Part shown: one piece after another, positions 1 through 20,865 of the stretch | How the letters are laid out: each line of letters opens with the position of its first letter | Numbering within the stretch: the stretch's first letter is position 1 | Source: an uncultured virus (IMG/VR IMGVR_UViG_3300024258_000016) | Lineage: Duplodnaviria > Heunggongvirae > Uroviricota > Caudoviricetes | Length of the DNA: 64,000 nt | Virus record (IMG/VR): IMGVR_UViG_3300024258_000016 | Strand: one strand, 5' to 3' | Translations under genes and position numbers: made by a program | The notes under the pieces: generated by a model | What the model saw: the letters and a program-made list of their open reading frames with translations, nothing else | The model's database searches: none | Told to the model about the DNA's origin: nothing

Positions 1-15
1 GTTTTGGCAGGATTG

Positions 16-546
16 TCAGACCTTGAGCAACTTGTACTTGATACCGTCAATCTCGACAAGGCGATCTTCGCAAGTATTGGCATTTCGCTTGGCAATCTCG
101 GTGTTATAGTCATGCTCGGTATAACATTCTCCATCAAGATACCAATCTTTGTCACCATTGGCATATTCACAGGCAGGGCCGTCAATGCGGTGACACTTGT
201 CATTTTGATACCAAAATTTGTCACCATTGGCAGATTCAACGGCAGGGCCGTCAATGCGGTGACACTTGCCATTTTGATACCAAGATTTGTCACCATTGGC
301 ATGTTCAACGGCAGGGCCGTCAATGCGGTGACGCTTGCCATTTTGATACCAATGTTTGTCACCATTGACATATTCAACGGCAGGGCCGTCAATGCGGTGA
401 CGCTTGCCATTTTGATACCAATGTTTGTCACCATTGACATATTCAACGGCAGGGCCGTCAATGCGGTGAAACTTGTCATTTTGACACCAAAATTTGTCAC
501 CATTGGCATACACTCTCACTTCATATGTCTCGAAATTCGCCATCAT
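16..546 (-). CDS. [13 protein letters not shown] protein, 5 units, N-cap type A (locus R1)
   Basis: 23-aa repeat WYQNGKxHRIDGPAxExxNGDKx; RBS GAGG and promoter upstream. Confidence 0.9.
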   Translation of the reverse strand: MMANFETYEVRVYANGDKFWCQNDKFHRIDGPAVEYVNGDKHWYQNGKRHRIDGPAVEYVNGDKHWYQNGKRHRIDGPAVEHANGDKSWYQNGKCHRIDGPAVESANGDKFWYQNDKCHRIDGPACEYANGDKDWYLDGECYTEHDYNTEIAKRNANTCEDRLVEIDGIKYKLLKV

Positions 547-582
547 TGCCTCGTTTGTTATTTCTTGACCGTTTCTAGATAC

Positions 583-611
583 ATGATACTACGGGATGAC
601 CGTCAAGTCAA
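583..611 (-). promoter_or_regulatory. sigma70-type early promoter repeat
   Basis: TTGACT-17bp-TATCAT on minus strand, followed by conserved leader GTATCTAGAAACGGTC. Confidence 0.85.
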
Positions 612-620
612 GGGGAAAGT

Positions 621-899
621 TTAAATGTTAATGAGGTCTAGTAGCCATCTGACCCTAAACTGACAATTCCAACGATCAGAGATATACTCAAGAGTGAGCT
701 TGATTTGCTCTAAATCGAAGTAACCATAAGTTTCCACTCCAGGTCGATAATCGTTTTCTTCTGATGCTTGTTCACAGTTTGCAATTACAAGTTCTTTCTC
801 TATAGTTCGTAGTTCTGCCTGAATCTGTCCTAAAGTAGCATCTTCAAGGAATTTATCCTCTACAAACTTATCCCACAAGATAGCTTTGATTTTATCCAT
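621..899 (-). CDS. hypothetical protein (single-gene promoter cassette)
   Basis: ATG with GAGG RBS, lies between two promoter repeats. Confidence 0.75.
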   Translation of the reverse strand: MDKIKAILWDKFVEDKFLEDATLGQIQAELRTIEKELVIANCEQASEENDYRPGVETYGYFDLEQIKLTLEYISDRWNCQFRVRWLLDLINI

Positions 900-937
900 T
901 TCTTTTTCCTCTCTTCTCGACCGTTTCTAGATAATAC

Positions 938-966
938 ATGATACCACAGGATGACCGTCAAGTCAA
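938..966 (-). promoter_or_regulatory. sigma70-type early promoter repeat
   Basis: TTGACT-17bp-TATCAT, near-identical to 583-611. Confidence 0.85.
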
Positions 967-985
967 GGAGAAAGTTTTGGCAGGA

Positions 986-1381
986 TTAGCAAGCCTTGAT
1001 CAGCTTGTACTTGATACCGTCAATCTCGACAAGGCGATCTTCGCAAGTATTGGCATTTCGCTTGGCAATCTCGGTGTTATAGTCATGCTCGGTATAGCAT
1101 TCTCCATCAAGATACCAATATTTGTCACCATTGACATATTCAATGGCAGGGCCGTCAATGCGGTGAAACTTGCCATTTTGATACCAAACTTTGGTACCAT
1201 TGATATATTCAATGGCAGGGCCGTCAATGCGGTGATACTCGCCATTTTGATACCAAAATTTGTCACCACTGGCACATTCAACGGCAGGGCCGTCAATGCG
1301 GTGACAATTGCCATTTTGATACCAACATTTGGTACCATTGGCATACACTCTCACTTCATATGTCTCGAAATTCGCCATCAT
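986..1381 (-). CDS. [13 protein letters not shown] protein, 3 units, N-cap type A (locus R2)
   Basis: N- and C-terminal caps near-identical to R1, different internal modules. Confidence 0.9.
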   Translation of the reverse strand: MMANFETYEVRVYANGTKCWYQNGNCHRIDGPAVECASGDKFWYQNGEYHRIDGPAIEYINGTKVWYQNGKFHRIDGPAIEYVNGDKYWYLDGECYTEHDYNTEIAKRNANTCEDRLVEIDGIKYKLIKAC

Positions 1382-1405
1382 TGCCTCTTGCTCTTCTATC
1401 TGTTA

Positions 1406-1753
1406 TCATTTATTGCCAATCTTGACACAACCTTCCTTTCTGGCATTCCAAATGTCGCCAATAGGATAACGACCATTCTTACCGCGCTTCTCAAGTAGTT
1501 CGACTCTGAACGTTTTGACGTTAATCTTGAGAACTTTGGCTCTTGTCTTTTCCCCATTCTCTGTTCCGAAGCGAACGATATCTCCGACATTAATGGTTTT
1601 GGCCATCATCCCGATGTAGATATCAATCTCCTCTTTGAGAGATTTGATAATTTCCATCATGTGATTGGCTTCGGCAGGTCTTTCACAAAGAGCGTCAAGC
1701 AATCCAGTTGCTCGAATCATCAAAGCCATTTCGTTAGTCATCTTATTCTCCAA
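1406..1753 (-). CDS. hypothetical protein with C-terminal SH3/KOW-like segment, paralogue of 2727..3044
   Basis: shared GDxVxFGTxxGEKTxxKVxKIN...RGKNGRYPIG; start uncertain. Confidence 0.75.
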   Translation of the reverse strand: MENKMTNEMALMIRATGLLDALCERPAEANHMMEIIKSLKEEIDIYIGMMAKTINVGDIVRFGTENGEKTRAKVLKINVKTFRVELLEKRGKNGRYPIGDIWNARKEGCVKIGNK

Positions 1754-1782
1754 ACTCGTTCAATCCCTCAACCTCATGCCCT

Positions 1783-1811
1783 ATAGTATCACAAGGCAGT
1801 CCACAAGTCAA
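1783..1811 (-). promoter_or_regulatory. sigma70-type early promoter repeat
   Basis: TTGACT-17bp-TACTAT, leader AGGGCATGAGGTTGAGG. Confidence 0.8.
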
Positions 1812-1857
1812 GGGAAAAGAATTGGCGAGACAAACAAGTTTTGAACTACCTTCCAAG

Positions 1858-1929
1858 TCAGAACATTAGGACTCGAACCTAAAAAATCACGATCCAGACG
1901 TGAGATGTTCCCAATTACATCATGTTCTG
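1858..1929 (-). tRNA. tRNA-Pro(UGG), atypical anticodon loop
   Basis: cloverleaf: CAGAACA/TGTTCTG acceptor, TCACG-TCTGGAT-CGTGA, TTAGG-TTCGAGT-CCTAA. Confidence 0.7.
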
Positions 1930-1940
1930 ATAAATTAAAG

Positions 1941-2015
1941 TACCTGCCGTTGAAATCGAATCAACTACCTCTAGATTCACAGTCTAGCGTTCAGCCTAAT
2001 GAACTTGAACAGGCA
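1941..2015 (-). tRNA. tRNA-His(GUG)
   Basis: CTAGA-CTGTGAA-TCTAG anticodon arm, GTTGA-TTCGATT-TCAAC T arm. Confidence 0.8.
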
Positions 2016-2024
2016 TAAAAATAG

Positions 2025-2097
2025 ATCTTCCTGTTGAATTTGAATCAACCTATCAGGATTCAGAGTCCTGCGCTCTAGCCAACTGAGCTAAGGAAGA
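2025..2097 (-). tRNA. tRNA-Gln(CUG)
   Basis: TCTTCCT/AGGAAGA acceptor, CAGGA-CTCTGAA-TCCTG. Confidence 0.88.
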
Positions 2098-2104
2098 ACA
2101 AAAA

Positions 2105-2191
2105 TGGTGGCCCGTGAAGGGATCGAACCTTCATGGATTTCTCCGGTGGTTTCTAAGACCACTGCGTATACCAAAATTCCACCAACGGGCC
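2105..2191 (-). tRNA. tRNA-Leu(UAG)
   Basis: GTGGT-CTTAGAA-ACCAC, long variable arm, encoded CCA. Confidence 0.92.
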
Positions 2192-2205
2192 ATAATTGTC
2201 AATAG

Positions 2206-2290
2206 TGACGCAGGAGAGACTTGAACTCTCAATCCGCTAAAGGCAAGAGATTTTGAGTCTCTCGTGTATTTCCATTTCCACCACTGCGCC
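2206..2290 (-). tRNA. tRNA-Leu(CAA)
   Basis: AGAGA-CTCAAAA-TCTCT, long variable arm. Confidence 0.9.
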
Positions 2291-2299
2291 TTATATCCC

Positions 2300-2715
2300 C
2301 TACATAGTATCAAATTTGCTTAAATGGCCCCCACATCGCCTTTAAACTGATCATCCCACTATAGAGTATAATAGATGATCTTTCCTTCTCTGCTGTTATG
2401 GCCCCAAACACGCCTAACAACGGGTTGTCACTTACGAAACTGCTTCATAACAATACAAAGCGCGCTTGACAACCTTACCCCGATTCAAAGATAACCTTTA
2501 CTCGTGACGATTTGGTGTAGTTTCATGTGATTCAAGGATTACTCTTGGCCTTTGGGGCAACATCACACAATCAACCAAATGGTCGATAGACAGGATTTTA
2601 ATCTATTCTTCTATAAGAGCCGTGATGAATGGTTCCAACTAAAGTCATCATCATCTATTCTAGTTGGTATCTTATCTACAATACGAACTTGGGCATCTCA
2701 CCAAGGGTATTGTTT
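2300..2715 (-). ncRNA. candidate large structured ncRNA upstream of tRNA cluster
   Basis: no credible minus-strand ORF; many complementary segments (ACAATAC/GTATTGT, CCAACTA/TAGTTGG, ATTTGGT/ACCAAAT, GGTTGTCA/TGACAACC, GATCATC/GATGATC, GCCCCAAA/TTTGGGGC). Confidence 0.55.
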
Positions 2716-2726
2716 TTACTTCCTCT

Positions 2727-3044
2727 CTAGCACTTCTCGCACATGGCCTTGGCTACGCGCCAAGGTGTGCCAATCGGATAACGACCGTTCTTGCCGCGAA
2801 TCTCAAGAAGCTCCAGATTGTAGGTCTTCTGATTGATCTTGACAACCTTTCCCTTTGTCTTCTCTCCCGTCTTTGTCCCGAAGATGACAGTATCGCCAAG
2901 CTCAATGACGTTGGCGGTCATCTCCAAATAGAGATCGATCTCGTTTCGAAGGTCTCGCATACCATCTTCAGTATCAAAAGGATCCTCAAGAATGTCGTTG
3001 AACATATCGCGGCACTTGTCAAGGAGAATTCGGTCTGCGCTCAT
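2727..3044 (-). CDS. hypothetical protein, paralogue of 1406..1753
   Basis: RBS GAGGT; shared C-terminal domain; promoter at 3097-3125. Confidence 0.8.
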   Translation of the reverse strand: MSADRILLDKCRDMFNDILEDPFDTEDGMRDLRNEIDLYLEMTANVIELGDTVIFGTKTGEKTKGKVVKINQKTYNLELLEIRGKNGRYPIGTPWRVAKAMCEKC

Positions 3045-3121
3045 AATGTTACCTCGATCACTCAGTTTTTGTTGCTTCCCTCACCAGGACAAGTACATCA
3101 TAACCCAAATCGGGCTGGGAG

Positions 3122-3325
3122 TCAAGGGAAAAGTTTTGTCACATTTACGTTGTTTTGCAGGAATCCAATGGAGAAAGTTTTAGGCTTATCTGGGAATAAA
3201 ACGATCTGATCATTTAAGATCTTCCACTCAATATAGAACTTCTTACGAGATTTCCCGACGATGACACCTGTAGATTTTCTGCCCGAAAATCTATAGCATA
3301 TGACCGAACCTATTTTAAGTTCCAT
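3122..3325 (-). CDS. small K-x-G-S/D family protein
   Basis: MELKIGSVI; RBS AGGAG; promoter TTGACA-17-TACCAT at 3364-3392. Confidence 0.7.
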   Translation of the reverse strand: MELKIGSVICYRFSGRKSTGVIVGKSRKKFYIEWKILNDQIVLFPDKPKTFSIGFLQNNVNVTKLFP

Positions 3326-3548
3326 TTCCTTTCTCCTTCGTTATTTCCTCAACCTCATGCACTATGGTAACACAAGATCGTCCCACTGTCAAGGGAAAAG
3401 AAATATCGGTAAACTGCTTCTAGACATTATGCAGTTCTTCGAGCGGCCAACTCTATATTATCACTTGTCATTCTAGGTTCAGACTGGCTCTCCACGAGCC
3501 AAAGGGGAATTGAACCCCAAAAGCAAAAAATACCCAATATGAATGAAG

Positions 3549-3624
3549 TTGCTGGTGCTGGAATCCAACCAGCTATCTCCTGAAATGTTGCCCCAGGCGG
3601 GATGTGGCATTTCCCTAACCAGCA
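3549..3624 (-). ncRNA. tRNA-like element with enlarged non-canonical anticodon loop
   Basis: TGCTGGT/ACCAGCA acceptor, GGGA/TCCC D stem, CCTGG-GGCAACATT-TCAGG, GCTGG-TTGGATT-CCAGC. Confidence 0.65.
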
Positions 3625-3632
3625 ATAAAAAT

Positions 3633-4071
3633 GGGCAGTTAAAGCTTGCCCAGGCATAATCAGCATCTCAAAATTAAAATTAAACTTGCAGTAGCTAACG
3701 AAATGGTTCCATAATCCTACCTAAGCCTAGTAATTATTAATGCCTTTATCAAAAGCGCGAAAGGTCAATAGAGTGAAGATTGTTGATCGGAGATCTTTGA
3801 CCGTAATAACCAATGGGGCTCTTGACCCATTTAACGTCACATGGACGAAGTAGTTTAAGAGGACTTACTTAGGTCTATCTATTACATAGTGAACAATGCA
3901 TTTTTCGTCAACCTTTATAACCACGACACAAATTGATACTACAAACAATTTCAAACAGTTTTGAGACTTGTTTGAGGTCTAAACTAAACCAAGACTGTCC
4001 ACAATCTAACCCCTAAATAATAATGCAGGTCAACAGTCGATGATGGGCAGTTTAGCGACAATGCCCAGGTC
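3633..4071 (-). repeat. four copies of a ~28-nt H-type pseudoknot motif (3633-3655, 3848-3876, 3951-3980, 4045-4071)
   Basis: GAC-CT-X-(A/TT)-GTC-..-AAAC-X' with X/X' = GGGCA/TGCCC, CAAACA/TGTTTG, AAGTA/TACTT. Confidence 0.7.
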
Positions 4072-4076
4072 AGATA

Positions 4077-4562
4077 CTAACCGTTCAGATTGGTGATCTG
4101 CTCCGCGACCTCATCCGAGAACTCCGAGATAGCATCGTCAGCGTCGAGAATCTCGACAGGCTCGCCATCGGTGGAATCCGCCTCAAGCTCGACCTCCACG
4201 TCAAGGTCGGAATCCGCATCCGTCTCGACGAAGCGATCCAGCGTGCCATCCTTCGAGAACGCCTTAATCGCCAGATCCTTGCCCTTGTTCGCCTTATAGC
4301 GACTCTCCAGGCCATCGGGCGTACCGAGGACAGTCACCGAAAGGTCATCCTCGATGAAAAGCAGGGTAAACAGACGATTCCCACCCGCCTCTTCTCGCGA
4401 CACATCAACAGGAACGCTCGACATGAAGAACCGATCCGCAAAAACCTTGCGACCGAGCGCAACCTTGCGAGCGGCGAAATCCTCCTTATTGAAGAAAGTA
4501 CCCTCGGCAGTGGTGTGAGCCTCACGAAACGCCTTGACCGAATCAAAACCAGTAAACGTCAT
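4077..4562 (-). CDS. hypothetical protein with acidic C-terminus, GC-rich codons
   Basis: RBS GGAGGT, 161 aa, preceded by four promoters. Confidence 0.85.
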   Translation of the reverse strand: MTFTGFDSVKAFREAHTTAEGTFFNKEDFAARKVALGRKVFADRFFMSSVPVDVSREEAGGNRLFTLLFIEDDLSVTVLGTPDGLESRYKANKGKDLAIKAFSKDGTLDRFVETDADSDLDVEVELEADSTDGEPVEILDADDAISEFSDEVAEQITNLNG

Positions 4563-4634
4563 AACAGAACCTCCAAAGAACCTAAACGAACATTTCGTGT
4601 CGGCAAAGCACCCGCTCCACCAACTTCATGACCC

Positions 4635-4894
4635 ATTCTACATCAAACAGGGCCGCTTGTCAAGGGGAAAAATCAACCGCCTCTTTGACGGCCCCTAACT
4701 TCCAAGAACATAGTACCACGAACCTACCGCCCTGTCAAGGAGAAAGTTTTCATCGTTTCAACGACCTTCCCTCACCAGGACAAGTACATCGTACCACAGC
4801 CCGAAGGCCCTGTCAACGAAAAAGTTTTCGTCGTTTCAACGGCCTTCCCTCACCAGGACAAGCACATCGTACCACAGCCCGAAGGCCCTGTCAA
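4635..4894 (-). promoter_or_regulatory. four tandem sigma70 promoters including a 78-bp direct duplication
   Basis: TTGACA-17-TAGAAT (4635-4663), -TACTAT (4710-4738), -TACGAT (4788-4816 and 4866-4894). Confidence 0.85.
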
Positions 4895-5147: not shown

Positions 5148-5176
5148 ATAGTACCACAGGATGACGTGGCAGTCAA
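5148..5176 (-). promoter_or_regulatory. sigma70-type early promoter repeat
   Basis: TTGACT-GCCACGTCATCCTGTGG-TACTAT, identical to 5394-5422. Confidence 0.85.
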
Positions 5177-5393: not shown

Positions 5394-5422
5394 ATAGTAC
5401 CACAGGATGACGTGGCAGTCAA
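5394..5422 (-). promoter_or_regulatory. sigma70-type early promoter repeat
   Basis: TTGACT-17bp-TACTAT. Confidence 0.85.
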
Positions 5423-5723: not shown

Positions 5724-6332
5724 TTATCCTTCTTGATTAAGTTGTTTCTTTACTTCTTCCCAAGAGAAGGGATAGAAATCATTTACATCAACTCCCACGT
5801 TAAAATGCTTTGGATAGTTATTCTCATTCGAGTTATGAATGTGACCATGGATAACTCGATCACAGTTATGCTGAATTAGCAATTGCATGGTTTTCATCCT
5901 TCTTCTCAAAGCTTTGTCTTCGATATCTTGAAGAAGAAATCCCACCTTACGATTGAGTACATCATCTACCGTCATTGTGTGATTATGAGCAGGATAATGA
6001 TTCAACATGTATCTGTTCTCGAATACGAATGATCTGTATGTCTCGGGAATGCCCATATTGGCCATCTTTCTCAGAGATAGGTCGTGGTTGCCCTTAATCA
6101 AAATGATGTGGCCATTTAGCCTGTTTCTGACGATATCAGATAACTCTTCTTGATACCTTGTCCAGCCAAAATCTCCAAGATGATAGATTGTATCTCCATC
6201 CTTGACAAGTTCGTTCCACCTTTCAATCATTGTCTCATTCATTTCTTCTAGAGAAGAGAAAGGTCGATTGCATAGTTTTATAATGTTATAGTGGCAAAAA
6301 TGATTATCCGATGTAAACCAAGTACTTGTCAT
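5724..6332 (-). CDS. calcineurin-like metallophosphoesterase
   Basis: SDNHF, LGDF, GNHD, HGHIH motifs. Confidence 0.92.
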   Translation of the reverse strand: MTSTWFTSDNHFCHYNIIKLCNRPFSSLEEMNETMIERWNELVKDGDTIYHLGDFGWTRYQEELSDIVRNRLNGHIILIKGNHDLSLRKMANMGIPETYRSFVFENRYMLNHYPAHNHTMTVDDVLNRKVGFLLQDIEDKALRRRMKTMQLLIQHNCDRVIHGHIHNSNENNYPKHFNVGVDVNDFYPFSWEEVKKQLNQEG

Positions 6333-7359: not shown

Positions 7360-8541
7360 TTACTTGTCAAGGTCATTAAGGAACTTGACTGCACCAATGA
7401 GCTTCTTTGTCCTTTTCAAGATGTGCTCCTTTACAACATCTGTTGCATTCTGAACAGTAACCTCTCCTTTGGCAACAAGGGCCATCATCATAGGGAATTC
7501 TGGAGTGTCCTTGTATTTCAATGCAAACTTCTTTCGCTTGTTTGGATCGAACTCGTAGAATACCGTATCGTATATTTTAGATGCAGTAGTGTTGTAATAC
7601 TGACTGATTTTCTTTTCGATGTCTCGGATATTATCACGAACATCATCATCATTTTCATCAAGCTGGGCAAAGATGTCGTCTACATTCTCGTCAATAATGG
7701 CCTGAATGATGTAGTTCTCTTTGTCCATACAATTGGTACGAAGATGGTGTAGTTGAAAATACTGCGCTGTCTTGATCTTTAGGATCTGTCCATCATCAAG
7801 AGTAACAACCCATCCTTCAATATTTTCTTCTGTCTTTGCCCTCTCCTTCAGATCCTCTACAGTATAATCAGGATATTCTTCTGCCTCGGCAATGTTGATA
7901 CCATAAATCTTGTTCACCAATTCAATGTTTCTATACTTTCCGTTCTCACTCCTTTCTTGGAGTAGTACAAGTTTGTGCTCTTTGTATCTCAACACAATCC
8001 TGTTAGAAGGTCCAACAAACTCGAACAAGGCAGAACGATTAAGTTTCAAGGATGTGTTAATGAATTCCTGTAGTTTCTCATCATTGTCGTAAATCTCTTG
8101 TGCCATACGACTCTGATCGTTGTCAAAACTCATCTTTGTCTTGGCAACGACATTTCCATTAGGAAGTCGAATGAATCGAATAAGACTGCCATCAAACTTA
8201 TTTTGAACAGAGACAATCTTCTTGTCCTTCACATCTTTAAGAAGATATCCTTCTGTCTCGCCCATATTGAAAAACTTGTGAAGCATGATAAATCGTTTCA
8301 TGCTACCATCATTCTGTTGGACGAATGTAAGACCTCTCAACTCGTAAGCCTTGATCTCTGGTTTGTCCTTGATCGGACAATTGAAATCTCCGTACGATGC
8401 AATACGATAATTGAACATCACAACCTTATATCCTTGCACTTCTACAATCGACATAAAGAAGGAATCGTTGGCTTTCACGATTTCGAGACATTCATTATAT
8501 GTTGGAATCATTTTTCTCCCCACTTCCTCAATTCTCTCCAC
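7360..8541 (-). CDS. RNA ligase, T4 Rnl1/RnlA family
   Basis: HKFFN, motif I KFDGSLI, FEFVGP.N.IV, EGWVV, KIK. Confidence 0.9.
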   Translation of the reverse strand: MERIEEVGRKMIPTYNECLEIVKANDSFFMSIVEVQGYKVVMFNYRIASYGDFNCPIKDKPEIKAYELRGLTFVQQNDGSMKRFIMLHKFFNMGETEGYLLKDVKDKKIVSVQNKFDGSLIRFIRLPNGNVVAKTKMSFDNDQSRMAQEIYDNDEKLQEFINTSLKLNRSALFEFVGPSNRIVLRYKEHKLVLLQERSENGKYRNIELVNKIYGINIAEAEEYPDYTVEDLKERAKTEENIEGWVVTLDDGQILKIKTAQYFQLHHLRTNCMDKENYIIQAIIDENVDDIFAQLDENDDDVRDNIRDIEKKISQYYNTTASKIYDTVFYEFDPNKRKKFALKYKDTPEFPMMMALVAKGEVTVQNATDVVKEHILKRTKKLIGAVKFLNDLDK

Positions 8542-10784: not shown

Positions 10785-11167
10785 TTACTTCTCCTAGCAA
10801 TTTCAATACTATAGTCTTGCTCGGAATATTTGATACCATCAATATACCAAAATTTGTAACTATCAATATATTCAAGAGCAGGGCCGCCAATGCGGTGACA
10901 CTTGCCATTTTGATACCAACATTTGTCACCATTGACATATTCAATGGCAGGGCCGTCAATGCGGTGATGTTTGCCATTTTGATACCAAGATTTGCCACCA
11001 TCGGCATATTCGATGGCAGGGCCGTCAATGCGGTGAAGTTTGCCATTTTGATACCATTTAATTGTCTTGTCTGGGATACTAATGGCACATCCGTCAGGCT
11101 TTGGAGTATCATAATCGTCATCGTAAATAACGGTGCCATCTACCCAAATTTGATATGGCTTGATCAT
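10781..11167 (-). CDS. [13 protein letters not shown] protein, 3 units, N-cap type B (R3)
   Basis: MIKPYQIWVDGTVIY...KPDGCAI cap plus repeats. Confidence 0.9.
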   Translation of the reverse strand: MIKPYQIWVDGTVIYDDDYDTPKPDGCAISIPDKTIKWYQNGKLHRIDGPAIEYADGGKSWYQNGKHHRIDGPAIEYVNGDKCWYQNGKCHRIGGPALEYIDSYKFWYIDGIKYSEQDYSIEIARRSK

Positions 11168-12072
11168 TATCTTTCTTTATTCATCAAATTGTCATTCAAT
11201 CGACGCTTGAGCATCTTTGCCGTTGTTGCGGCAATCTGCCCTAACGTATTCTTTGATACAATAATTTCTCCCTCTGCCTCTCGGAGAACATCTTCTTGCA
11301 TTGCCTTGATAATTTCGCCAGTACGAGTCATATCAATTTCACCCACAATCTTGTCAAGTACGTGAGTGAGCCTCATTTCTGTTACCCACTCATCTGCAAT
11401 CTTTCTCGCATCTGCAAGAACTTTGAGCTTCTCTTCTTTCTTGAGCATATCCTCAACCGATGGAGGGTTCTTTCTTTCTTGGAAATCGGCATTCTTGAAC
11501 TTGACAAGCATTCGCTTTCCATTGTTGGTAGCACATTCCCACAATGGTCGAATTACGATCCCTTCACTCTTATGCCCGTGACCCATACCATTACGGATTG
11601 CCTGCTGACATTCCTGATTACGCCACTTGATCAACTCTTCAATGTCTGTACTCGACTTGGTAAACCATACGAATTCAAGATTCATGTCGTCTGTCACTAG
11701 TTTATGGGCCTTGTCGAAATCGAGCCAATGATCAACAATTTTGACATCAAATGCAATGAACTTGGCCTCCTTGCCATATGAATGCGACATCTTTTGCATA
11801 CTTCCGCCATACGCTTCGCCATAGATGGTAATCGCTTGCACACCAAGATTGCGGAAATTGGCAAGAAGAGCATCCTGATCAAAAATGTTAATGAAGAGTT
11901 GATGACTCATCCCTCCAGAAAAGAACCTCAATTCTTCTTCTCCTAACTCATTGATTTTAAAGGATAAATTTGAACTCGTGCCGTGAATTTTCTCAACTAC
12001 GTAAACCTCTTTAAAGTCTAAAATCCTTTGTGCCCTCGGCTTCTCAAGATTGTCAATATGCATGTATCCCAT
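11167..12072 (-). CDS. RNA ligase, Rnl2-like family
   Basis: motif I EKIHGT, YGE, AFD, EGIVIRP, KFKN; promoter at 12101-12129. Confidence 0.85.
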   Translation of the reverse strand: MGYMHIDNLEKPRAQRILDFKEVYVVEKIHGTSSNLSFKINELGEEELRFFSGGMSHQLFINIFDQDALLANFRNLGVQAITIYGEAYGGSMQKMSHSYGKEAKFIAFDVKIVDHWLDFDKAHKLVTDDMNLEFVWFTKSSTDIEELIKWRNQECQQAIRNGMGHGHKSEGIVIRPLWECATNNGKRMLVKFKNADFQERKNPPSVEDMLKKEEKLKVLADARKIADEWVTEMRLTHVLDKIVGEIDMTRTGEIIKAMQEDVLREAEGEIIVSKNTLGQIAATTAKMLKRRLNDNLMNKER

Positions 12073-14920: not shown

Positions 14921-15658
14921 TTAAACTTGATTCGTATCACAATATCGATTCCCATCAAAGCTGCCAGTTTCTGCGTGATGAATGTATCCAAAAGGATTGG
15001 CAACTACTCGTGTTCCTCCAATTTTGTAATCAATAGGATCGTGCATGTGTCCATGAATCCACAACTTTGGAGCATTATCGCTCAACATCAAGCCTGTCAT
15101 ATCTGTGTAGTAATACCTATTAAGATTCGATGTCTTATAATTCTCGGAGATGCTCAGTGTCGAAGGGGCATGGTGAGAAACAACAATCGTCTCATTGTTT
15201 GATAGTTGCTTGATTCTGTCGATTGTGTTTGCATTCTCGTCATATACCCAACTGGTGAATTTGGGAATATACTTAAAATCATTCATCCATCCACGATAAA
15301 TAGAGTTCAACGGATCGTCAGAAAACCACATGGTATCACCAATAAAAGTTACACCATTGATAGTGACTGGTCGATACTTCTGCAACCAATGAATGCCATC
15401 AATTTTGTCAATTTTATTGGCAATCGAATACAACAAAGGCTTATCGATGCTGTAATATTCATGATTACCAAGAACGAAGATGGTGTTCTCAAAGTGTGTC
15501 GCGATGCCAGTAATACACATTGGCAACCTATCATGCTCTGCACAGATATCTCCAGCAATTACAACAGTTTCGCCATACGGAAGATACTTGATAAACTGGA
15601 TTGTCTGTTCACCCGTCATGTGCTCGAAATGTAGATCGCTCATATAATGGATAAGCAT
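14921..15658 (-). CDS. metallophosphoesterase
   Basis: SDLH, AGDI, GNHE, HHAP, HGHMH. Confidence 0.92.
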   Translation of the reverse strand: MLIHYMSDLHFEHMTGEQTIQFIKYLPYGETVVIAGDICAEHDRLPMCITGIATHFENTIFVLGNHEYYSIDKPLLYSIANKIDKIDGIHWLQKYRPVTINGVTFIGDTMWFSDDPLNSIYRGWMNDFKYIPKFTSWVYDENANTIDRIKQLSNNETIVVSHHAPSTLSISENYKTSNLNRYYYTDMTGLMLSDNAPKLWIHGHMHDPIDYKIGGTRVVANPFGYIHHAETGSFDGNRYCDTNQV

Positions 15659-16148
15659 GGCAGTTCCTTGATTGGTTATGAGATATTGTAACATGGAAGG
15701 TATGGATTGTCAAGAGAAAAGGATGTCAAGAAATGATAATTATAAAGGATTTATCTTCTAGGAAAAATCTATTCAAATCCCTTACAGTATATTTGTATTG
15801 AGCGCCTTTTTCCCACGATACAATCACACAATTGGAATAAAGATCAGATACTTCAAAAGCTTTGATAACTACCCCATATTGAGAATTGGTTCTGTAATTA
15901 CTTTCGTCATAATAGTAAATTACAGAACCAACTTTTAAGTTATATCCTAGTTTTTGTATTGTCATCTTAACTAATTTGGTCTACAAGGTGATCTGACGAA
16001 CTCATTAATGATTTATTTTTTCTTTCAAGAATTTCGATTCTTTGATAAGCTTCTACCAATAATGAATGTAAATCAAATCCTCGATATAACTCATCATCAA
16101 TTTTTTGTTCTGCTTTTTGCTTCCTTTCTCTGTTTGATGTCGGGAACA

Positions 16149-20381: not shown

Positions 20382-20865
20382 CTCAATTGGTGTACCCTAT
20401 AATAGCACATCCTACCTGGATGGTCAATGGGAAACTATTCGATGATGAATTTCGGATCGAAAGTTCTCTCGACATAAATTGTATGGCAAATACCGAGGGT
20501 AGTTTGAACCCTCATGAGTCGAGAAACATTATGAACAATTTCTTTAAAAGTAAGAGAAGGAGTTTGCAAAAAGCTGTCCATAAATTTGATTGAAAGATCT
20601 TTTGTCAAACGAACATATAGTTCTGCAAGATTGACAAACTGCTTGTCTGTCAAGTCTTTTCGGCTCGAAATCTTTAGATCAATAAAATCATTGACAACTT
20701 CTTCTTGTTCTTTTAACGAAAGCCCGCTAAGAAATCCAAACTTTTCATTATCCATAGCTTCATGGATTTCCTTTTCATACTTCATCTTGAAAATACTCCT
20801 CAATTGGTGTACCCTATAATAGCACATCCTACCTGGATGGTCAATGGAAAATTATTCGATGATGA
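20382..20865 (-). repeat. 67-bp direct repeat (20382-20448, 20799-20865) containing a promoter and the end of the upstream gene
   Basis: 2 mismatches; TTGACC-17-TATTAT. Confidence 0.9.
20435..20785 (-). CDS. hypothetical protein between the 67-bp repeats
   Basis: MKYEKE start after GAGGAG. Confidence 0.7.
   Translation of the reverse strand: MKYEKEIHEAMDNEKFGFLSGLSLKEQEEVVNDFIDLKISSRKDLTDKQFVNLAELYVRLTKDLSIKFMDSFLQTPSLTFKEIVHNVSRLMRVQTTLGICHTIYVERTFDPKFIIE

Follow-up and report, generated by a model that had tools for sequence, protein, structure and literature searches.

A candidate 233-nt non-coding RNA with head-to-tail joined ends beside the tRNA genes of an uncultured marine phage

Introduction

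Few phage small RNAs (sRNAs) are known, most of them from model phages, and circular sRNAs are barely documented in the bacterial world. OOP of phage lambda is a cis-antisense sRNA that is transcribed from a mapped promoter, overlaps the end of the cII coding sequence, and ends at an intrinsic terminator. Phage T4 produces two stable RNAs, species 1 and species 2 (rnaC and rnaD), which are encoded in its tRNA region in the same orientation as the tRNAs and mature together with them. The RNA ligases of phages are usually read as tRNA-repair enzymes that act against host anticodon nucleases.

In archaea, C/D box sRNAs are described as being circularised by an ATP-dependent RNA ligase, Rnl of Thermococcus kodakarensis, with the proximity of the RNA ends provided by a terminal stem considered likely to be critical for intramolecular ligation by archaeal Rnl (PMC9014305). 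Circular isoforms of omega-RNA are also reported from archaea (PMC12558985), and the ncRNA DucS of Bacillus is described as occurring in linear and circular forms (PMC10504365). A literature search covering titles and the opening parts of abstracts returned no phage-encoded, non-intron circular sRNA, a result that is not proof of absence.

Here we analyze a 64,000-nt stretch of DNA from an uncultured Caudoviricetes virus (IMG/VR record IMGVR_UViG_3300024258_000016), referred to below as the window, in which an initial annotation had proposed an ornate ncRNA of ~400 nt next to a tRNA cluster. The observation behind that proposal is partly confirmed and its interpretation partly supported: a contig from an RNA run argues for a discrete ncRNA from the gap, but this contig covers only the half of the gap that lies far from the tRNAs.

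Results and discussion

An ORF-free gap separates an orphan gene from a tRNA cluster

The window corresponds to the reverse strand of a 122.7-kb record (G000) from an uncultured virus, rated ~59% complete. A 147.7-kb metagenome contig (L009) is 100% identical to positions 1-4700 of the window. Positions 1-969 lie off the virus record, yet they are continuous and identical in L009, and the IMG/VR record is therefore truncated ~1.3 kb from the 233-nt unit described below. Public sequencing runs point to a seawater origin, with 22 runs listed, 12 holding at least half of the sampled words, and one being an RNA run. The DnaE-type polymerase of the phage is less than 31% identical to GenBank phage proteins, and the nearest IMG/VR loci by DnaE are four in number and at 46% identity; by these sequence comparisons the phage is distant from anything described. 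Between 5.7 and 63 kb the window carries a gene set that is unusual for a single phage, with genes for a DnaE-type polymerase, GroEL, ClpP, a DnaJ-like protein, ThyX, a class I RNR, an MT-A70 methylase, dCMP deaminase, dUTPase, two RNA ligases, and HNH and GIY-YIG endonucleases.

Genes in the window run mostly in one direction, with 111 of 134 picked ORFs and all nine tRNAs on the minus strand. Only six ORF-free gaps exceed 250 nt. One of these, 436 nt long at 2291-2726, lies between the stop codon of P0001, which encodes a 105-aa orphan protein (2727-3044, minus strand), and tRNA-Leu(caa) (2290-2205, minus strand), the first of five minus-strand tRNA genes (Leu-caa, Leu-tag, Gln-ctg, His-gtg, and Pro-tgg) at 1857-2290. 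The initial annotation had described an ORF-free gap in a densely coding genome, placed beside a tRNA cluster, and both parts of this description hold, as all six frames of 2291-2726 are interrupted by stops and the gap abuts tRNA-Leu(caa). A pseudogene remnant of P0001 was considered and rejected: a tblastn search with P0001 detected no decayed copy in the gap and matched only the genuine end of the gene.

The gap is real and does not belong to any known RNA family. Scanning the whole window with cmscan at Rfam gathering scores detected tRNAs only and no family in the gap, and a scan of 1700-4100 on both strands gave no Rfam match within 2291-2726 at E<=10. ARAGORN at its normal threshold, and Rfam at gathering scores and at E<=10, found neither a tmRNA nor an RNase P RNA, and Rfam at the same two levels gave no intron hallmark. 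The earlier statements that such hallmarks are missing and that the region cannot be assigned to a known RNA thus stand, since Rfam explains nothing in the gap. A "permuted tmRNA" reported at a lowered ARAGORN threshold is a false call that reuses the genuine tRNA-Leu. A second ORF-free gap, of 452 nt at 3625-4076, lies beside tRNA-Val and has no Rfam match; it carries no fold signal (z -0.59 and -0.89), and a canonical minus-strand hairpin followed by U5 is found immediately upstream of tRNA-Val.

A contig from an RNA run joins the two ends of a 233-nt unit

We compared one RNA run (X19, a metatranscriptome of 179 million letters) and three DNA runs with positions 1700-3300 of the window. The RNA run contains one 246-nt contig, of depth 2.8, that aligns with 0 mismatches to 2484-2631 and then to 2619-2716. 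The contig is therefore the 233 nt of 2484-2716 once around plus 13 nt, with a joint that leads from 2716 back to 2484 (a step of 233), 98 letters on the shorter side of the joint, and 1 ambiguous letter, and both ends of the unit may shift by one base (2485-2717). Other X19 cover on 1700-3300 consists of unlike, tRNA-Gln-like pieces at 2056-2094; the lack of further cover in this run carries no evidential weight. The four runs compared show no sequence variants in the gap. Of the ~400-nt RNA that had been proposed, the RNA run thus supports a transcript of 233 nt, with only 2484-2716 covered. An endless ORF around a circle of this sequence was rejected, since stops occur in all frames and 233 is not divisible by 3.

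The joint is present in the one RNA run and in none of the three DNA runs or two assemblies. DNA contigs cross 2483/2484 collinearly (X12 record 3, 1969-2684; X15 record 20, 2398-2548), and the two assemblies (G000 and L009) run collinearly, and without a difference in sequence, through both ends of the unit. Therefore, the joint looks RNA-specific. Its evidence is a single contig of depth 2.8 from one run of one study, with strandless data, and RNA libraries can contain DNA. As words that occur a single time are left out of Logan contigs, the joint would have been read at least twice.

These data could be explained without any special RNA, with the joint produced by template switching, cDNA ligation, an assembly chimera, or a rare tandem duplication in DNA, and with the gap serving as a regulatory spacer that contains hairpins, promoters, and decayed tRNA-like repeats. 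The single contig of low depth in a small run, the possible presence of DNA in the library, the folding of the whole gap at levels not above shuffles, and the lack of conservation in every collection searched (see below) would all fit such an origin, as would the promoter-like element in the gap and its direct repeats resembling the 5′ part of tRNA-Leu (64-72% identity). However, the contig closes the unit exactly and without a mismatch, with 98 letters even in the shorter arm of the joint, and the DNA contigs and both assemblies are collinear. The joint also coincides with the U-run of a terminator, which points to RNA ends, and even head-to-tail joining in vitro needs an RNA with these two ends. 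We consider an artefact unlikely.

The joint itself may be either that of a covalent circle or head-to-tail multimer, or a join made during library preparation, and in either case there must be a discrete RNA whose ends lie at 2484/5 and 2716/7. A covalently closed circular RNA would be expected to show its joint in RNA and not in DNA; the joint seen here, at a depth of 2.8, may equally have been made in vitro. As described, DucS is a counterpart in some respects, with both being non-intron ncRNAs of the bacterial world that were detected as putative circles through permuted reads and that show no cross-species conservation. DucS is chromosomal and its circles have been validated experimentally, whereas the phage unit is represented by one metatranscriptome contig.

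One end of the unit lies in the U-run of a putative plus-strand terminator

Read from the plus strand, the unit has a two-tier, terminator-like hairpin at its 3′ end (2678-2717; ACAAUAC..CUUGG-loop-CCAAG..GUAUUGU), with the U-run at 2713-2717 coming after the stem. The hairpin has a ΔG of -10.7 kcal/mol and a U-run of 5, with the core site at 2688-2705 followed by a T-rich tail, and is one of about six plus-strand terminator-like sites in the 64 kb when a 69-nt coding repeat is set aside. The end of the unit at 2716/2717 falls within this U-run, a position that corresponds to termination only if the unit is read from the plus strand. A joint located within a terminator U-run points to RNA ends rather than a DNA duplication, a random chimera, or an assembly breakpoint. 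The terminator is opposed to every neighboring gene and therefore makes sense only if a plus-strand transcript stops there. In these features the unit would be like lambda OOP, being short, opposite to its neighbors, ended by a hairpin and U-run, and convergent on the 3′ end of a protein gene. Unlike OOP, which overlaps the end of cII, the phage unit is separated from the P0001 stop codon by 10 nt, and it is 233 nt long, seen joined end to end, and without a good promoter.

At its other end (2482-2486), the unit has the plus-strand sequence GA|UUC, a putative 5′ processing site that resembles the RNase E preference, R-N|W-U-U; the assignment to this enzyme is presumptive. The search for sigma-70-like sites found none with a start at 2484, and a perfect TTGACA at 2466-2471 is just 12 nt upstream. 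A weak sigma-70-like promoter candidate at 2425-2454 (plus strand; TTGTCA-18-AACAAT, 9/12 matches) would put the transcription start at about 2461, 23 nt ahead of the 5′ end of the unit, and such candidates are common in shuffled sequence (10 found against a mean of 5.1). Without a correctly placed promoter, the 5′ end must be processed or else derive from an unknown type of promoter.

Read from the minus strand, the unit would have the ends GUA|AAAA and GAA|UCG, with no terminator at 2484. It could then be a piece of the P0001 transcript, derived from the 3′UTR or from the leader of a read-through tRNA precursor, that is cut 10 nt past the P0001 stop codon, trimmed to the last stable helix, and circularised after this processing. 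Such an origin would agree with the nearby genes, tRNAs, and strong promoters, all of which are on the minus strand, and with the strong sigma-70-like promoter upstream of P0001 (3097-3125, minus strand; TTGACT-17-TATGAT, 10/12 matches), from which no canonical minus-strand terminator intervenes ahead of the unit. The joint is blind to strand, and in the predicted minus-strand fold the 3′ end lies 5 nt past the closing helix, as it would after exonuclease trimming. However, neither minus-strand end matches the RNase E preference given above, the minus-strand fold is no better than shuffles (z -1.17), and the position of an end inside a plus-strand terminator U-run would be a coincidence.

The tRNA cluster also seems to have a promoter of its own. 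An extended -10 element, TGATACTAT, lies at 2304-2312 on the minus strand, 14 nt upstream of tRNA-Leu. Of its 6 matches in the window, every one is on the minus strand and 4 fall within TTGAC-17 promoters, and it is probably the cluster's own promoter. The more general pattern TTGAC-N15-19-TAYWRT matches 17 times in the window against 2.3 expected, with 15 of the 17 on the minus strand. With this putative promoter in place, the 233-nt unit need not belong to the tRNA precursor. We therefore regard derivation from the minus strand as a possible but rather doubtful account.

Transcription from the plus strand, against all neighboring genes, is most likely, with the plus strand modestly favored over the minus strand for the unit. 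With slightly less than even confidence, we propose that 2484-2716 encodes a discrete ncRNA that is transcribed from the plus strand, ended by the terminator, processed at its 5′ end, and joined end to end. T4 rnaC and rnaD share with such an RNA a place beside a phage tRNA cluster and an origin in a phage that encodes RNA ligases. In contrast to the T4 RNAs, the unit is probably encoded opposite the tRNA strand.

Folding does not distinguish the gap or the unit from background

Minimum free energies of folding were compared with those of dinucleotide shuffles and expressed as z-scores. On the minus strand the whole 436-nt gap gives z -1.35, with 6 of 100 shuffles folding equally well; on the plus strand the figures are z -1.86 and 2 of 100. 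The gap thus folds no better than shuffled controls, which leaves the ornate fold of the initial annotation, with its at least six nested helices, without support. For the 233-nt unit the values are z -2.86 on the plus strand (0 of 200 shuffles as good) and z -1.17 on the minus strand (29 of 200). Elsewhere in 1-2573, background windows of 233 nt reach z -2 to -4.4, the antisense of tRNA genes included, and on the plus-strand antisense of the tRNA cluster (1873-2339) the values are -3.3 to -4.4 against -0.2 to -1.3 on the tRNA strand itself. Such extreme values on the antisense strand of tRNAs make the strand asymmetry of z unreliable, and the better plus-strand folding of the unit carries little weight in the choice of strand. 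Because background windows are equally extreme, thermodynamics was rejected as proof of a structured RNA; the unit has no demonstrable ornate structure, and its z is ordinary against the local background. The predicted plus-strand fold includes a closing helix (AGAUAA/UUAUCU) that is stacked on the terminator hairpin's flank, so that the 5′ and 3′ ends would lie next to each other.

A long-range pairing of GCCCCAAA with TTTGGGGC had also been proposed to form a pseudoknot. Both sequences exist, at 2401-2408 and 2551-2558, but their pairing is near chance level. The gap contains 6 perfect 8-mer inverted pairs against 1.48 +/- 1.5 in 500 shuffles, 10 of which reach 6, and three of the six pairs are overlapping windows of one 10-mer. 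One arm of the supposed pseudoknot lies inside the 233-nt unit and the other outside it, and the gap has no homologues, leaving the pseudoknot unsupported.

One large, ornate RNA of ~400 nt over the whole gap, comparable with GOLLD or ROOL, was the interpretation first placed on this region. The gap is indeed ORF-free and adjoins tRNAs, and its tRNA-side part, 2291-2483, folds at z -2.77 on the minus strand (1 of 200 shuffles as good). Against this stand the whole-gap z-scores above, the 233 nt to which the observed RNA is confined, pseudoknot arms that fall on either side of the end of that RNA, the lack of homologues for covariation, and the absence of any match to GOLLD, ROOL, or another Rfam family. 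A non-coding region beside phage tRNA genes is the shared feature; GOLLD and ROOL are several hundred nucleotides long, whereas the phage unit has 233 nt and no supported complex fold. A single ~400-nt RNA is extremely improbable.

Only identical copies of the unit were found

A blastn search of GenBank phages with the gap matched only tRNA-Leu, in 63 records. P0001, and an alignment of P0001 with its paralogue P0002, gave 0 confirmed relatives in IMG/VR, and a search of 5.8 billion proteins with P0001 found no homologue but itself, on 13 contigs. The phages related through DnaE (46% identity) do carry tRNA clusters; in the three larger records of the four DnaE loci, neither the gap sequence (best match 15 nt, E 0.07-0.23) nor P0001-like genes were found. 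An RNA-ligase scan of metagenomes recovered 2 loci that are identical and a further 11 at 30-49% identity, and BLAST detected no copy of the unit in these diverged ligase kin. A covariance model built from the single unit sequence and run against the DnaE and ligase kin returned only self matches plus one 7-bit match at E 1.1. Two 20-mers gave 0 matches in viral contigs, and one gave 0 in genome contigs. By these sequence searches, only identical copies of the unit are present in the collections covered, and without diverged homologues covariation cannot be run on it.

RNA ligases of the phage are candidates for sealing the unit

Two RNA ligases are predicted near the unit, both on the minus strand: an Rnl1-like ligase at 7360-8541 (phrog_562, E 1.5e-57; PF09511 RNA_lig_T4_1, E 3.2e-18) and an Rnl2-like ligase at 11167-12072 (PF09414, E 1.2e-11; T4_Rnl2_C, E 6.4e-5, which is below the curated cut-off). 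Calcineurin-like phosphoesterases are predicted at 5724-6332 (minus strand) and 14921-15694 (PF00149, E 1.8e-7 and 5.4e-10), and a role for them as RNA end-healing enzymes is possible from their family membership. Both ligases and the two phosphoesterases are within 3-12 kb of the unit.

A terminated transcript has a 3′-OH and the 5′ end left by an endonuclease is a monophosphate, and both are substrates of ATP-dependent ligases. With such ends and with ligases encoded by the phage, sealing of the unit by a phage ligase is plausible. In this process, the unit would be transcribed from the plus strand against all neighboring genes, transcription would stop at the intrinsic terminator, tail-to-tail with P0001, and a cut at GA|UU would create the 5′ end, to which the 3′ end would then be sealed by the Rnl1-like or Rnl2-like ligase. 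The resulting exonuclease-resistant antisense RNA would pair with minus-strand transcripts that run from the P0001 promoter (3125-3097) across the gap, and could modulate the 3′ ends of P0001 transcripts or read-through to the tRNAs. A function as an antisense or nuclease-resistant regulator is a low-confidence guess. The full proposal, that an sRNA encoded next to the tRNA cluster of a lytic marine phage is closed covalently into a circle by the phage's own Rnl1- or Rnl2-like ligases and acts during infection as an exonuclease-proof regulator or decoy, is one to which we assign a low probability.

This scheme has a parallel in the archaeal C/D box sRNAs as described. The unit is alike in having defined ends joined 3′-to-5′, in a closing helix that also brings the ends together, and in a genome that likewise encodes an ATP-dependent RNA ligase. 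It differs in coming from a bacterial virus and in having no C/D boxes, and its candidate sealers are Rnl1- and Rnl2-like.

The precise ends and circular product could also result from RNA catalysis, with an unrecognised pair of self-cleaving ribozymes or an intron-like element excising and ligating the 233 nt. A modest excess of long-range complementarity between the unit and its downstream flank (6 perfect 8-mer pairs where 1.48 are expected, a number that 10 of 500 shuffles also attain) would be compatible with such an element. However, in the collinear sequence neither strand has a match at E<=10 to hammerhead, twister, pistol, hatchet, HDV-like, or hairpin ribozymes or to group I or group II introns, the unit is not flanked by direct repeats, and its 3′-terminal base is A (minus) or U (plus) and not the terminal G of group I introns. 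No gene is interrupted, as P0001 ends before the unit. The unit shares a viroid-like size and precise ends with group I intron circles and viroid-like RNAs, and differs from them in having no family match, terminal G, flanking repeats, or split gene and in having a DNA template in the phage. Self-excision is accordingly very improbable.

Should the unit prove to be a genuine circle, it would connect the RNA ligases of phages with the production of a stable regulatory RNA, and the enzymes that repair the tRNAs of phage and host would manufacture circular RNA as well. It would in addition offer a compact natural ligase substrate, of 233 nt and with known ends. If it is merely a linear, terminator-ended antisense RNA, it would be an ordinary but new orphan phage sRNA.

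Elements between the unit and the tRNAs, and flanking genes

The tRNA side of the gap contains elements of its own. Between the unit and the tRNAs, a hairpin at 2422-2474 has perfect 8-bp arms, GGTTGTCA and TGACAACC, as 8-mers at 2423 and 2467, and 2291-2483 also holds another hairpin. Two 25-nt direct repeats, at 2317-2341 and 2391-2415, are 72% identical and align in register, at 64% identity, with 2267-2291 at the 5′ end of tRNA-Leu(caa), the family as a whole ranging from 64 to 72%. The repeats may have been left behind by duplication of a tRNA gene, or they may represent a protein-binding hairpin that is repeated. Within the cluster, tRNA-Gln (2053-2094) is matched in all four runs by very deep foreign contigs (word depth up to 750), which align to a 38-42-nt segment of the gene with 4-6 mismatches. 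The phage tRNA-Gln resembles that of abundant seawater bacteria, a possible clue to the host.

P0001, which converges tail-to-tail with the plus-strand terminator, and P0002 (1406-1753, minus strand) are paralogues of 46% identity, each with its own strong promoter. An AlphaFold model of P0001 (pLDDT 71) has two helices and a small β-barrel, with weak KOW/Tudor-like matches (E about 3e-3), and the two genes flanking the tRNA cluster may encode nucleic-acid- or ribosome-binding early proteins.

A periodic repeat of 69 nt (23 codons) occurs within many different minus-strand genes, with copies about 83-93% identical, at 1-1400 and at 10.9-11.1, 25.9-26.1, 27.1-28.4, 31.1, 32.4-32.5, and 33.9-34.2 kb of the window and at 17155-20700 of L009. 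Its plus-strand sequence has the look of terminator hairpins (UGGCAGGGCCGUCAAUGCGGUGA...), and three of the proteins that carry it have weak DUF6745 matches. Elsewhere on the minus strand, an early promoter family shares CCCTTGAC...TG-N-TACTAT, and two pairs of 29-nt promoters are identical to the letter (5148-5176 and 5394-5422; 20399-20427 and 20816-20844), which suggests recent duplication of cassettes consisting of a promoter and a small gene.
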